From assembly GCF_051903065.1 (NCBI RefSeq), contig NZ_CP178438.1: 64,000 bases of DNA, one strand, 5' to 3'. This document shows positions 5,061 through 63,176 of this stretch, piece by piece. Each line of letters starts with the position of its first letter. Position 1 is the first letter of the stretch. The DNA is from Escherichia coli (GTDB taxonomy: Bacteria > Pseudomonadota > Gammaproteobacteria > Enterobacterales > Enterobacteriaceae). Below the pieces are notes generated by a model, which saw only the letters and a program-made list of their open reading frames with translations, had not been told where the DNA came from and did no database searches. Position numbers and translations under genes: made by a program.

Positions 5061-5177
<117 letters not shown>

Positions 5178-5202
5178 GGCAGATCTCAGCGATAGCGCCG
5201 GC

Positions 5203-6858
5203 TTAATCAGATTTAATCTGCGCGCGTGGTGGATACTTTTTCAGGATCTCCATATACGCGTGCATTTCGGTCTGTAGCGGTACACCCATCGGAATATGGC
5301 GCACGCCGATAGAGTCGCTCTCCTGCGGATCGGTGTACAGGTTAAACACCGACGATCCGGCTGTTTGCATTACTGTGCCGGTGAATCCACCCTGATATCC
5401 GCTCTGGGTATAAGCGTAAGGTTGCTGAATCAGGACGTGATACTTGAATTCATCCATACGCACAGCAGCGAGTTTACCGTTGAGGAAGTAGTGCTCGGCC
5501 TTACGGTTAGACTGACCATTTGTTCCCAGGAAGAAAGATGTCTGGTCCACACCATCGATAAAGGTGGTTTTCGGCACTAAATTCGCCACTTTCGCGCCAG
5601 GATGCCCTGCCAGATCCAGCGCGGTAGGGAAGAGATCTGCCAGATCGACAATACCGTCAGATTTACGCGGTTGGATCATCCCTTTCCAGTACACGAAAGT
5701 CGGAACGCGAACGCCGCCTTCCCAGGTAGATCCTTTCGCACCACGGAACGGTGTGCGTCCGTGCGGCGGTACTTCGGCTTCCGGTCCGTTATCGGAGGTA
5801 AAGACAATCAGCGTGTTATCAAGCTGACCGTTTTTCTCTAGTGCTTTATACAGATTAGCGAACACATCGTTCATTTCCACCATGCAGTCGCCATACGAGG
5901 TGCGTGCCGGAGAGCTACCCGCATATTTGGCGTTCGGGTAGTTATCGAAGTGACAGCCGCGAGTGCCGTAATAGAGGAAGAAAGGCTTCTCACTCTTCGC
6001 CATCTTGTCGAGGAACTTAACGCCATATTCCATCCAGCGTTGATCCAGATCTTCCATATATTTCGGCGTAATGTCGGCAATGGCCTGTTGTTCGCCGCCG
6101 CGCACCGCATGAACGTCATCTTTGCTAAATGGTAATTGCTTGATGTATTCAGAACGGTCCGGACTCAGGGCCACTTCCGGATTGACGTGAACGTCGCGCC
6201 ATTCGGTGTACATATCAGACACCGAGTTAAAGCCACGGAAATCATCAAAGCCAACGTTCTGCGGCTGCGACTCTTTGTTTTCCCCCATATGCCATTTCCC
6301 GATGGCCTGAGTGACGTAGCCCTGATCGTGCAGCAACTGCGGCAGCGTGGTTAACCCTTGCAGCCCGCCCGGTTGCCCGTACATTGGCGGCATCAGAATG
6401 CCGTGGTGGATGGAGTATTGTCCGGTGAGAATGGTGGCGCGGGTTGGGGAAGAGCTTGGTTGAGAATACGCCGAAGTTAAAATCAGCCCCTGGCTGGCAA
6501 CGGCGTCGATATCTGGTGTAGGGTTACCCACCGCCACGCCGCCACCGTTAAAACCGACGTCCATCCAGCCCACATCGTCCAGCAAGAAAACAACCACATT
6601 CGGTTTCTTACCGGTTTTTTTCTCAAGTTCTGCCAGCTTCTGCTGGGTTTCTTTATCCTGCGCCGGATGCTGCATTACTGGCATCATGTTGTCGGCAATA
6701 GTGGTCGCCGGTTTAACCAGATACTGGTTTGGGTGATCGTATCCGGCAAAGCCTTTGCGTGCGGTGGCAGTTGAAGGGGTATCTGCTGCGCTGGCCATGA
6801 GAGGAAGAGCGGCGGCGACAGCAACAACAAGAAGTTTGGGTGAAAACGAAAATTCCAT
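5203..6858 (-). CDS. aslA: Arylsulfatase-like protein with signal peptide, 551 aa; Ser-type sulfatase signature
   Basis: N-terminal signal peptide ([15 protein letters not shown]); sulfatase signature S-x-P-x-R-xxx-L-T-G present as [11 protein letters not shown]. Confidence 0.85.
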
Positions 6859-22156: not shown

Positions 22157-22872
22157 TGCGTTTTTACCGGCCTTTGGGGCGCATCTCGGCGCTCACCTTT
22201 GACCTGGATGATACCCTTTACGATAACCGTCCGGTGATTTTGCGCACCGAGCGAGAGGCGCTTACCTTTGTGCAAAATTATCATCCGGCGCTGCGCAGCT
22301 TCCAGAATGAAGATCTGCAACGCCTGCGCCAGGCGGTACGGGAAGCGGAACCCGAGATTTATCACGACGTGACGCGTTGGCGTTTTCGTTCGATTGAACA
22401 AGCGATGCTCGACGCCGGGCTGAGTGCCGAAGAAGCCAGTGCAGGCGCACACGCAGCAATGATTAACTTTGCCAAATGGCGCAGCCGAATCGACGTCCCG
22501 CAGCAAACTCACGACACCTTAAAACAGCTGGCGAAGAAATGGCCGCTGGTGGCGATCACCAACGGTAACGCCCAGCCGGAACTGTTTGGTTTGGGGGATT
22601 ATTTTGAGTTTGTGCTGCGCGCTGGCCCGCACGGGCGCTCAAAACCGTTCAGCGATATGTACTTTTTGGCTGCGGAAAAACTCAACGTGCCGATCGGCGA
22701 GATCTTACATGTTGGGGACGATCTCACCACTGACGTGGGTGGGGCAATTCGCAGCGGAATGCAGGCCTGTTGGATCAGACCGGAAAATGGCGATCTGATG
22801 CAAACCTGGGACAGCCGTTTACTGCCGCATCTGGAAATTTCCCGGTTGGCATCTCTGACCTCGCTGATATAA
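22156..22872 (+). CDS. yigB: HAD-superfamily phosphatase YigB, 238 aa
   Basis: HAD motif I (FDLDDTL) near the N-terminus; immediately follows xerC. Confidence 0.85.
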
Positions 22873-22881
22873 TCAGCAAAT

Positions 22882-56827: not shown

Positions 56828-58159
56828 ATGGAATCACTGGCCTCGCTTTATAAAAATCATATAGTTACCTTACAGGAACGGACTCGCGATGCGCTGGCGC
56901 GCTTCAAGCTGGATGCGTTACTTATTCACTCCGGCGAACTGTTCAACGTTTTTCTCGACGATCATCCCTATCCGTTTAAAGTGAACCCGCAATTCAAAGC
57001 GTGGGTGCCGGTAACTCAGGTACCAAACTGCTGGTTGCTGGTGGATGGCGTGAACAAGCCGAAACTGTGGTTTTATCTGCCGGTTGATTACTGGCACAAC
57101 GTCGAACCGCTGCCGACCTCCTTCTGGACTGAAGATGTAGAAGTGATCGCGCTGCCGAAAGCCGATGGCATTGGTAGCCTGCTGCCTGCTGCGCGCGGCA
57201 ATATCGGTTATATCGGTCCGGTGCCGGAACGTGCGCTGCAACTGGGTATTGAGGCCAGCAATATCAACCCGAAAGGGGTTATCGACTACCTGCATTACTA
57301 CCGCTCCTTCAAAACCGAGTACGAACTGGCCTGTATGCGTGAAGCGCAGAAAATGGCGGTCAACGGTCATCGCGCGGCAGAAGAAGCGTTCCGTTCTGGC
57401 ATGAGCGAGTTCGATATCAACATTGCCTATCTGACCGCGACCGGTCATCGTGATACCGACGTACCTTACAGCAACATTGTGGCACTCAACGAACACGCTG
57501 CGGTGCTGCATTACACCAAACTGGATCATCAGGCGCCGGAAGAGATGCGCAGCTTCCTGCTGGATGCCGGGGCCGAATATAACGGCTATGCCGCTGACCT
57601 GACCCGTACCTGGTCGGCAAAAAGTGACAACGATTACGCACAGCTGGTGAAAGACGTAAATGATGAACAACTGGCGCTGATCGCGACCATGAAAGCTGGC
57701 GTTAGCTATGTGGATTACCACATCCAGTTCCATCAGCGCATCGCCAAATTGCTGCGTAAACATCAAATCATCACCGATATGAGTGAAGAAGCGATGGTCG
57801 AAAACGATCTCACCGGACCGTTTATGCCGCACGGTATCGGCCATCCGCTGGGCCTGCAGGTGCATGACGTCGCCGGTTTTATGCAGGATGATAGCGGTAC
57901 GCACCTCGCGGCACCGGCAAAATATCCGTACCTGCGCTGCACCCGTATTCTCCAGCCGGGCATGGTGTTAACCATCGAACCGGGTATCTACTTCATTGAA
58001 TCGCTACTGGCACCGTGGCGTGAAGGGCAGTTCAGCAAGCACTTCAACTGGCAGAAAATTGAAGCACTGAAACCGTTCGGCGGCATTCGTATCGAAGACA
58101 ACGTGGTGATCCACGAAAATAACGTGGAAAACATGACCCGGGATCTGAAACTGGCGTGA
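56828..58159 (+). CDS. pepQ: Xaa-Pro dipeptidase (prolidase), 443 aa
   Basis: M24 metallopeptidase metal-ligand motifs; length matches. Confidence 0.9.
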
Positions 58160-58811: not shown

Positions 58812-60263
58812 ATGCATTTTCGCGCCATTACCCGAATCGTTGGACTACTGGTCATCTTATTTTCAGGGACCATGATTATCCCTGGGCTGGTAGCACTCAT
58901 CTACCGGGATGGAGCGGGCCGCGCTTTTACCCAGACCTTTTTTGTCGCCCTCGCCATTGGCTCTATGCTGTGGTGGCCGAACCGCAAAGAGAAGGGCGAA
59001 CTGAAATCCCGTGAGGGGTTTCTGATAGTGGTGCTGTTCTGGACCGTGCTGGGTAGTGTCGGTGCGCTCCCTTTTATCTTCTCGGAAAGCCCGAACCTCA
59101 CGATTACCGATGCGTTTTTTGAATCTTTCTCTGGCCTGACCACCACCGGGGCCACTACGCTGGTGGGGCTGGATTCGCTCCCTCATGCCATCCTCTTTTA
59201 TCGCCAGATGCTGCAATGGTTTGGCGGGATGGGGATCATCGTGTTAGCGGTTGCGATACTGCCTATCCTCGGCGTGGGTGGGATGCAGCTCTATCGTGCA
59301 GAAATGCCCGGCCCGCTGAAAGATAACAAAATGCGCCCGCGAATTGCGGAAACGGCGAAAACCCTGTGGTTGATTTATGTCTTGCTGACCGTCGCCTGTG
59401 CGCTGGCGTTGTGGTTTGCCGGAATGGATGCCTTTGATGCCATCGGCCATAGCTTTGCGACTATCGCTATTGGCGGCTTCTCGACACATGATGCCAGTAT
59501 CGGTTATTTCGATAGCCCGACTATTAACACTATCATTGCTATCTTCCTGCTGATCTCCGGCTGTAACTACGGTCTGCACTTTTCACTGTTAAGTGGGCGT
59601 AGTCTGAAGGTTTATTGGCGCGATCCGGAATTTCGCATGTTTATCGGCGTACAGTTTACGCTGGTGGTTATTTGTACCCTCGTACTGTGGTTTCATAATG
59701 TCTACAGTTCGGCGCTGATGACAATTAACCAGGCGTTTTTCCAGGTGGTGTCGATGGCGACAACCGCCGGGTTTACGACTGACAGCATTGCCCGCTGGCC
59801 GCTCTTTTTGCCGGTACTGCTTTTATGTTCCGCTTTTATCGGCGGTTGTGCCGGGTCAACGGGCGGTGGCCTGAAAGTGATCCGCATCCTGCTGCTGTTT
59901 AAGCAGGGGAACCGTGAGCTGAAACGACTGGTGCATCCGAACGCCGTCTATAGCATTAAGCTGGGGAATCGCGCACTGCCGGAACGTATCCTCGAAGCCG
60001 TTTGGGGATTTTTCTCCGCCTATGCATTGGTGTTTATTGTCAGTATGCTGGCGATTATCGCCACGGGCGTGGATGACTTTTCTGCTTTTGCCTCGGTTGT
60101 TGCGACATTGAATAACCTGGGGCCGGGGCTTGGCGTGGTTGCTGATAACTTTACCAGTATGAACCCGGTGGCTAAATGGATCCTGATTGCCAACATGCTG
60201 TTTGGTCGTCTCGAGGTCTTTACATTGCTGGTGCTCTTTACCCCGACTTTCTGGCGTGAATGA
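58812..60263 (+). CDS. trkH: Trk-system potassium uptake protein TrkH, 483 aa
   Basis: Polytopic membrane protein with repeated pore-loop-like segments. Confidence 0.9.
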   Translation: MHFRAITRIVGLLVILFSGTMIIPGLVALIYRDGAGRAFTQTFFVALAIGSMLWWPNRKEKGELKSREGFLIVVLFWTVLGSVGALPFIFSESPNLTITDAFFESFSGLTTTGATTLVGLDSLPHAILFYRQMLQWFGGMGIIVLAVAILPILGVGGMQLYRAEMPGPLKDNKMRPRIAETAKTLWLIYVLLTVACALALWFAGMDAFDAIGHSFATIAIGGFSTHDASIGYFDSPTINTIIAIFLLISGCNYGLHFSLLSGRSLKVYWRDPEFRMFIGVQFTLVVICTLVLWFHNVYSSALMTINQAFFQVVSMATTAGFTTDSIARWPLFLPVLLLCSAFIGGCAGSTGGGLKVIRILLLFKQGNRELKRLVHPNAVYSIKLGNRALPERILEAVWGFFSAYALVFIVSMLAIIATGVDDFSAFASVVATLNNLGPGLGVVADNFTSMNPVAKWILIANMLFGRLEVFTLLVLFTPTFWRE

Positions 60264-60274
60264 TGGAGTAATAC

Positions 60275-60820
60275 GTGAAAACATTAATTCTTTTCTCAAC
60301 AAGGGACGGACAAACGCGCGAGATTGCCTCCTACTTGGCTTCGGAACTGAAAGAACTGGGGATCCAGGCGGATGTCGCCAATGTGCACCGCATTGAAGAA
60401 CCACAGTGGGAAAACTACGACCGTGTGGTCATTGGTGCTTCTATTCGCTATGGTCACTACCACTCTGCGTTCCAGGAATTTGTCAAAAAACATGCGACGC
60501 GACTGAATTCGATGCCGAGCGCCTTTTATTCCGTAAACCTGGTGGCGCGCAAACCGGAGAAGCGTACTCCACAGACCAACAGCTACGCGCGGAAGTTTCT
60601 GATGAACTCGCAATGGCGTCCCGATCGCTGCGCGGTCATTGCCGGGGCGCTGCGTTACCCACGTTATCGCTGGTACGACCGTTTTATGATCAAGCTGATT
60701 ATGAAGATGTCAGGCGGTGAAACGGATACGCGCAAAGAAGTTGTCTATACTGATTGGGAGCAGGTGGCGAATTTCGCCCGAGAAATCGCCCATTTAACCG
60801 ACAAACCGACGCTGAAATAA
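60275..60820 (+). CDS. hemG: Protoporphyrinogen IX dehydrogenase (flavodoxin-like, menaquinone-dependent), 181 aa
   Basis: Flavodoxin-like start [25 protein letters not shown]; last CDS before the rRNA operon. Confidence 0.9.
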
Positions 60821-60869
60821 GCATAAAGAATAAAAAATGCGCGGTCAGAAAATTATTTTAAATTTCCTC

Positions 60870-60897
60870 TTGTCAGGCCGGAATAACTCCCTATAAT
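60870..60897 (+). promoter_or_regulatory. rRNA operon promoter P1
   Basis: TTGTCA (60870-60875), 16-bp spacer, TATAAT (60892-60897); A/T-rich UP-like tract aaattattttaaatttcct upstream. Confidence 0.8.
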
Positions 60898-60988
60898 GCG
60901 CCACCACTGACACGGAACAACGGCAAACACGCCGCCGGGTCAGCGGGGTTCTCCTGAGAATTCCGGCAGAGAAAGCAAAAATAAATGC

Positions 60989-61016
60989 TTGACTCTGTAG
61001 CGGGAAAGCGTATTAT
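60989..61016 (+). promoter_or_regulatory. rRNA operon promoter P2
   Basis: TTGACT (60989-60994), 16-bp spacer, TATTAT (61011-61016). Confidence 0.75.
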
Positions 61017-61053
61017 GCACACCCCGCGCCGCTGAGAAAAAGCGAAGCGGCAC

Positions 61054-61073
61054 TGCTCTTTAACAATTTATCA
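61054..61073 (+). promoter_or_regulatory. rrn leader boxA antitermination element
   Basis: tgctctttaacaatttatca in the 16S leader. Confidence 0.75.
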
Positions 61074-61197
61074 GACAATCTGTGTGGGCACTCGAAGATA
61101 CGGATTCTTAACGTCGCAAGACGAAAAATGAATACCAAGTCTCAAGAGTGAACACGTAATTCATTACGAAGTTTAATTCTTTGAGCATCAAACTTTT

Positions 61198-62739
<1,542 letters not shown>

Positions 62740-62807
62740 CCTTAAAGAAGCGTACTTTGCAGTGCTCACACAGATTGTCTGATGAAAATGAGCAGTAAAA
62801 CCTCTAC

Positions 62808-62884
<77 letters not shown>

Positions 62885-62926: not shown

Positions 62927-63002
62927 GGGGCTATAGCTCAGCTGGGAGAGCGCCTGCTTTGCACGCAGGAGGTCTGCGGTTCGATCCCGCATAGCTCCAC
63001 CA
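62927..63002 (+). tRNA. alaT: Spacer tRNA-Ala (anticodon UGC)
   Basis: GGGGCTATAGCTCAGCTGGGAGAGCGCCTGCTTTGCACGCAGGAGG...CATAGCTCCACCA. Confidence 0.95.
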
Positions 63003-63176
63003 TCTCTGTAGTGATTAAATAAAAAATACTTCAGAGTGTACCTGCAAAGGTTCACTGCGAAGTTTTGCTCTTTAAAAATCTGGATCAAGCTGAAAATTGA
63101 AACACTGAACAACGAGAGTTGTTCGTGAGTCTCTCAAATTTTCGCAACTCTGAAGTGAAACATCTTCGGGTTGTGA

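Follow-up and report, generated by a model that had tools for sequence, protein, structure and literature searches.

The 64,000-nucleotide stretch of Escherichia coli DNA analysed here, referred to as the window, almost certainly carries near its 3′ end the control region of the rrnA operon (60840-61197, + strand). Directly 3′ of hemG, this region holds the tandem promoters P1 and P2, an UP element, Fis sites, an antitermination leader, and a strand of an RNase III stem, whose functions would be carried over from K-12. Tandem rrn P1 and P2 promoters with an UP element, activation by Fis, antitermination through boxA, and RNase III processing are all textbook systems, and the rrnA Fis sites are already recorded in EcoCyc; the K-12 region was sequenced decades ago (de Boer, Gilbert and Nomura 1979, cited in PMC5179076). 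The control region is of value as an annotation anchor that fixes species, locus, and operon identity. The addition to the known picture is modest and consists of a family-wide invariance in spacing together with a footprint of Fis sites II and III at third codon positions of hemG, which illustrates how two codes can overlap and does not amount to a new type of element.

At its 3′ end, the + strand of the window carries pepQ, yigZ, trkH, hemG, a complete 16S rRNA gene, tRNA-Ile(GAT), tRNA-Ala(TGC), and the start of 23S, in that order. The hemG open reading frame, annotated in RefSeq as menaquinone-dependent protoporphyrinogen IX dehydrogenase, lies at 60275-60820 (+), with a GTG start and a TAA stop at 60818-60820. 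The 16S gene, rrsA, occupies 61198-62739 (+; Rfam RF00177 (SSU), 1575.6 bits; RefSeq annotation) and is followed on the same strand by the spacer genes for tRNA-Ile(GAT) at 62808-62884 and tRNA-Ala(TGC) at 62927-63002, both found by ARAGORN and Rfam. Since hemG lies directly upstream in the same orientation and the spacer tRNAs are of the Ile/Ala type, according to the types of rrn operon distinguished by spacer tRNA (PMC5179076), the operon is rrnA. In the same gene run, the pepQ stop and the yigZ start share 4 nt (58156-58159), and 11 nt separate trkH from hemG (60264-60274). A match to Rfam StyR-44 (63070-63169, 104.9 bits) lies in the spacer just 5′ of 23S; StyR-44 is already known from the rrn spacers of enterobacteria.

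Positions 60600-61260 align without gaps to the hemG-rrsA junction of K-12 MG1655, with 657 of 661 nt identical (99.4%), and the K-12 record annotates trkH, hemG, and rrsA at the corresponding stretch. When used as a query, these 661 nt, which run from the 3′ end of hemG to the 5′ end of 16S, matched 5425 of 5426 complete E. coli genomes, and the hemG-P1-P2-16S junction was present at no less than 80% of the query length in 5370 of the 5426. The RefSeq features under the E. coli matches are hemG and 16S ribosomal RNA. Thus, identity with K-12 and the annotation at the matches also assign the region to rrnA. The window and K-12 rrnA have in common the upstream trkH-hemG pair, the Ile/Ala spacer tRNAs, the promoter hexamers, the UP element, boxA, and the positions of the starts and Fis sites. 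They differ at four bases (window/K-12): a synonymous T/C in hemG at 60751, T/C between P1 and P2 at 60961, A/G in the P2 spacer at 61007, and A/G just before 16S at 61187. Since the A at both 61007 and 61187 is the allele of K-12 rrnC, rrnD, rrnE, and rrnH, these two differences suggest gene conversion between rrn operons rather than new mutation.

P1 spans 60870-60906 (+) and consists of a -35 hexamer TTGTCA (60870-60875), a suboptimal 16-bp spacer, a -10 hexamer TATAAT (60892-60897), the GC-rich discriminator GCGCCACC, and a +1 A at 60906, nine nucleotides past the -10. Upstream of these sigma-70 hexamers lies the UP element AGAAAATTATTTTAAATTTCCT (60847-60868, + strand, -59 to -38), which is identical to that of K-12 rrnB, rrnC, and rrnA P1 and whose function has been established for rrnB P1 (PMC4696680). 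P2, a second sigma-70 promoter about 120 bp past P1 with a start site of its own, spans 60989-61023 (+), with a -35 hexamer TTGACT (60989-60994), a 16-bp spacer, a -10 hexamer TATTAT (61011-61016), and a +1 C at 61023. An earlier, sequence-only reading of this DNA had proposed TTGTCA-16-TATAAT with an A/T-rich UP-like tract for P1 and TTGACT-16-TATTAT for P2. Both are present, at 60847-60897 and 60989-61016, respectively, and the tract equals the rrnB P1 UP element base for base. The check proposed at that time, an alignment with characterised rrn P1/P2 regions, comes out in favour of the assignment through the identity with K-12 rrnA given above and with the UP element of rrnB.

The hexamers match the consensus at 11 of 12 positions in P1 and 10 of 12 in P2. 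Promoter-like sites in the region number three, against 0.8 ± 0.9 in shuffled sequence, so the P1/P2 hexamer matches are more than chance. Over the whole 64-kb window, two sites on the + strand score at least 11/12 and five at least 10/12, with none on the - strand; the sole 11/12 match other than P1 lies at 22846-22873 (+) and reads TTGGCA-16-TATAAT. A consensus scan is by itself no proof of function, and the hexamers could be imagined as chance matches, with the true rrn start elsewhere. The probability of this is negligible: matches of 11/12 occur just twice within 64 kb, the P1 sequence from -17 to +9 is almost invariant across genera (58-64 species), and the mapped K-12 start sites fall where P1 and P2 predict them.

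These start sites come from Cappable-seq of K-12, which places the rrnA P1 start at 4033262 and the P2 start at 4033379 of U00096.2 (PMC4782308, Supplemental Table 2). Converted to the window, they fall at 60906 and 61023, 117 nt apart, which is exactly 9 nt past the P1 -10 hexamer and 7 nt past the P2 -10 hexamer, in surrounding sequence that is locally identical. Start-site data had been named beforehand as what might overturn the promoter assignment, and they put initiation exactly at both predicted +1 positions. The coordinate conversion was checked in three ways: the Cappable-seq P1 starts of rrnB, rrnC, and rrnE sit a constant 1977 nt from the predicted +1 in NC_000913.3, that of rrnH matches the predicted +1 at zero offset, and three catalogued Fis-site coordinates coincide exactly with predictions. 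In relative read score, the P1 promoters of rrnA, rrnB, and rrnC (255-289), which the Cappable-seq paper places in one group (group 1), lie about 20-fold below their own P2 promoters (5061-6444), and in rrnD, rrnE, and rrnH the P1 score is above that of P2 (PMC4782308). Because rrnA, rrnB, and rrnC are nearly identical downstream of +1, the assignment of reads among the copies may contribute to their low P1 scores.

Past P2, the leader begins with a boxB hairpin (GCCGCT...AGCGGC; 61028-61051, + strand), the fold of 61024-61056 having a free energy of -12.3 kcal/mol. This hairpin is found in K-12 rrnA, rrnB, rrnC, and rrnG, and a variant hairpin is found in rrnD, rrnE, and rrnH. It is followed by an exact boxA, TGCTCTTTAACAA (61054-61066, +), the probable nucleation site of the rrn antitermination complex by analogy, and then by boxC, TGTGTGGG (61081-61088, +). 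boxA is invariant in all seven K-12 rrn operons, which are essentially invariant from boxA to the 16S start, and it is also found 3′ of hemG in the longer related loci. The sequence-only reading had boxA followed by the 16S start, with its region ending at 61197; this end is exact, since 16S begins at 61198 by Rfam. boxC is contained in the 5′ strand of the stem for 16S processing, the predicted RNase III substrate, in which 61066-61110 (+) pairs with 62744-62787 (+), just 3′ of 16S. The predicted duplex reaches -57.9 kcal/mol, compared to -25.6 ± 4.0 kcal/mol for shuffled partners. Two RNase III-dependent positions published for K-12, 4035410 in "intergenic (hemG-rrsA)" and 4037115 in "(rrsA-ileT)" (PMC5371410), map to 61077 and 62782 of the window, and thus both published cleavage sites fall within this long duplex.

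On the upstream side, the hemG stop and the P1 -35 hexamer are separated by 49 bp, in line with the earlier estimate of about 50 bp. This spacer (60821-60869) is fully occupied by Fis site I and the UP element, and because hemG ends 49 bp before the -35, only these two elements fit within it. A search of 60200-61300 for intrinsic terminator-like hairpins returned no sites, and none lies between the hemG stop and P1. With no terminator hairpin at the junction, hemG transcripts must read into the promoter, be terminated by Rho, or meet a block of bound protein.

Four Fis sites at rrnA are listed by EcoCyc in U00096.2 coordinates (Table S3 of PMC3547798, a secondary table). Site I, GAATAAAAAATGCGC (60828-60842; EcoCyc 4033184-4033198), is centred at -71 and is wholly intergenic, 8 bp past the hemG stop. 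Site II, GACGCTGAAATAAGC (60808-60822; EcoCyc 4033164-4033178), is centred at -91 and covers the last hemG codons, the stop, and 2 nt beyond. Site III, GCCCATTTAACCGAC (60788-60802; EcoCyc 4033144-4033158), is centred at -111 in hemG codons 172-176, and site IV, GGCGAATTTCGCCCG (60766-60780; EcoCyc 4033122-4033136), is centred at -133 inside hemG and is a weak consensus match without the +7C. Fis sites were also predicted independently by scoring each 15-mer for G at -7, C at +7, Y/R at -4/+4, A/T at -3/+3, and an A/T centre. The predictions at -71, -91, and -111 are identical to the base with EcoCyc sites I-III and score 13/13, 10/13, and 11/13, respectively, site I being the sole 13/13 match in the whole 64-kb window; site IV was not recovered by this consensus scorer. 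The rrnB sites catalogued at -71, -102, and -143 served as a control, and the scorer finds all three, though it is crude and overlooked two of the catalogued rrnH sites (-91 and -181). It is close to the published core rules, namely -7G/+7C, -3R/+3Y, no -4A/+4T, and an A/T-rich centre (summarised in PMC3547798), which ask for -3R/+3Y and only bar -4A/+4T. Under the published rules, sites I and III conform throughout, site II departs only at -3R, and site IV departs at +7C and +3Y. Going by sequence, sites I-III therefore pass as Fis cores, with site IV marginal. A Fis site at -131, which would continue the 20-bp phasing, was rejected, since site IV is catalogued at -133 and has a poor score.

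The sequence-only reading had also asked for a prediction of Fis sites, which yields the three matches above, and had held that any Fis site of the upstream activating region would fall inside hemG. This is right for sites III and IV, and site II straddles the stop codon. However, "any" is too strong, since the promoter-proximal site I is contained entirely in the 49-bp spacer. Codons ~164-181 of hemG double as the rrnA upstream activating region, and they lie past the Flavodoxin_5 domain of HemG (amino acids 4-152; Pfam PF12724, E=8.6e-54).

The proposed mechanism is transferred by sequence identity from the established biology of rrnB P1 (summarised in PMC4696680 and PMC5179076). K-12 rrnA and rrnB are identical from about -66 through P1, P2, and the leader to the start of 16S, and the window differs from K-12 rrnB over this stretch by three single bases (60961, 61007, and 61187). 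Site I is at -71 in both operons, while the sequence upstream of -66 in rrnB is unrelated to that of rrnA, and the four rrnA sites (-71, -91, -111, and -133), spaced 20-22 bp apart, compare with three in rrnB (-71, -102, and -143). RNA polymerase with sigma-70 would start at the tandem P1 (60906) and P2 (61023), P1 acting, by analogy, as the strong growth-rate-regulated promoter and P2 probably supplying basal transcription. At P1, the alpha C-terminal domains would bind the A/T-rich UP element, and Fis dimers at -71, -91, -111, and -133 would activate, with the dimer at -71 likely contacting the alpha-CTD and the upstream dimers probably adding to activation. Site II overlaps the hemG stop, and sites III and IV lie within the last ~18 hemG codons. 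The GC-rich discriminator and 16-bp spacer would make the P1 open complex short-lived, which in turn would render it sensitive to ppGpp/DksA and the initiating NTP; from the identity with rrnB P1 between -66 and +1, we infer that such control probably extends to P1 of the window. Downstream, the boxB-boxA-boxC leader would lead to assembly of a Nus-factor antitermination complex nucleated at boxA, and the pairing of a leader segment with the sequence 3′ of 16S would present a stem for RNase III to cut.

Fis sites inside the upstream gene are not peculiar to rrnA, and they have been stated for rrnB/murI and tyrT/purU in a 2024 preprint (bioRxiv 10.1101/2024.03.27.586983). Since the murI stop is at -82 of rrnB P1, rrnB sites II and III lie in co-directional murI. 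Likewise, the gmhB stop at -77 of rrnH P1 puts the catalogued rrnH sites at -91, -134, and -181 in gmhB, and rrnH site I (-71) touches the gmhB stop codon; the -71/-91 pair is common to rrnH and rrnA. At tyrT, the reading frame of co-directional purU contains one Fis site (bioRxiv 10.1101/2024.03.27.586983). rrnH and tyrT both differ from rrnA in the gene upstream and in the sequence of the distal sites. K-12 rrnG is arranged differently: unlike in hemG-rrnA, the clpB stop at -152 is followed by a visible hairpin-T terminator, and rrnG is the only rrn operon with a co-directional neighbour that has room for one.

Conservation was examined at 80 Enterobacteriaceae loci obtained by a HemG search of species-representative genomes, which include Escherichia, Salmonella, Citrobacter, Enterobacter, Raoultella, Kosakonia, Lelliottia, Buttiauxella, and Cedecea. 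Most of the 80 contigs stop 30-400 bp past hemG, which an rrn repeat would lead one to expect. In every one of the 80 species, P1 +1 lies 631 nt from the hemG start and the alignment to the P1 region is free of gaps, and the P1 core is found at this distance in every locus with enough sequence. The T-tract of the UP element at -53 to -48 is 72-100% conserved by column among the Enterobacteriaceae species. At nine loci, in Cedecea, Dryocola, Buttiauxella, and one Enterobacter sp., the P1 -10 after hemG reads TATACT, with the spacing, the -35, the discriminator, and the start region kept. Within the fixed distance, the hemG stop is found at -101, -98, -89, -86, or -80, having moved by point substitution only and without indels; the absence of indels fits helical phasing.

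Anchored at +1, six columns stand out: G-78 (100%) and C-64 (99%), both over 79 unique rows, G-98 (96%) and C-84 (100%), and G-118 (100%) and C-104 (97%). They coincide precisely with the ±7 positions of cores whose centres lie at -71, -91, and -111. Among 54 species, the Fis score is at least 10 in 100% at site I, 93% at site II, and 96% at site III, compared to a background at 900 upstream coding positions in which the fraction of species has a 99th percentile of 0.19 and a maximum of 0.57. A candidate at -222, which scores 12 in E. coli, reaches 59% of species against 57% for the best coding background and is not claimed as a Fis site.

The conservation upstream of -84 could also reflect only constraint on HemG coding or hemG mRNA, so that site I alone would matter. 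Codons 164-174 encode the conserved residues V164, F167, A168, E170, I171, A172, and L174, which accounts for a large share of the conservation in the vicinity of sites III and IV. Site IV, besides being a weak match to the consensus, displays no conservation beyond that explained by its conserved F-A-R-E-I-A residues, and Ross et al. are said to have found in 1990 that most rrnB P1 activation comes from site I. Such an explanation is nonetheless very improbable, given the behaviour of third codon positions. C-104 occupies the third position of codon 176, and although this codon specifies 13 different amino acids, the base is C in 53 of 54 species, placing it, tied with two others, among the most conserved hemG third positions outside Met, Trp, and start codons. 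G-98, 96% conserved, either closes codon 178, where 8 amino acids occur, or supplies the G when the stop is TAG. The stop codon wanders from -101 to -80 while the alignment gains no indel, and EcoCyc lists the upstream positions as experimentally supported Fis sites. The pattern is direct evidence of non-coding constraint inside the hemG reading frame.

Another explanation, which is compatible with Fis activation of P1, is that the conserved, A/T-rich, phased sites from -91 to -133 serve mainly for H-NS or Lrp, for curved DNA, or as a roadblock that insulates P1 from hemG read-through. H-NS has been reported to bind the promoter regions of rrnA, rrnB, and rrnH, and in reporter assays rrnA belongs to the weaker rrn promoters (PMC4696680). 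The junction lacks a terminator-like structure, and insulation by Fis and H-NS has been proposed at rrnB P1 (bioRxiv 10.1101/2024.03.27.586983). However, the conserved columns are exactly the -7G/+7C contact positions of a 15-bp, A/T-centred Fis core, which is not a signature of H-NS or Lrp, the sites are phased at 20 bp from site I as in Fis arrays, and EcoCyc assigns the -91 to -133 positions to Fis, all of which make a main role other than Fis activation unlikely.

It is tentatively proposed, at clearly less than even confidence, that across the Enterobacteriaceae the C-terminal tail of HemG has been overprinted by the upstream activating region of rrnA and that the Fis array may also bar hemG read-through, since no terminator fits the 49-bp spacer. 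The hemG/P1 junction offers a quantifiable example of regulatory DNA embedded in coding sequence, in which the helical-phasing requirement of a promoter can keep the 3′ end of the adjacent gene at a fixed length across a whole family. At the other end of the gene, the hemG start codon is GTG in 44, ATG in 5, and TTG in 5 of 54 species, GTG being the one in the window.
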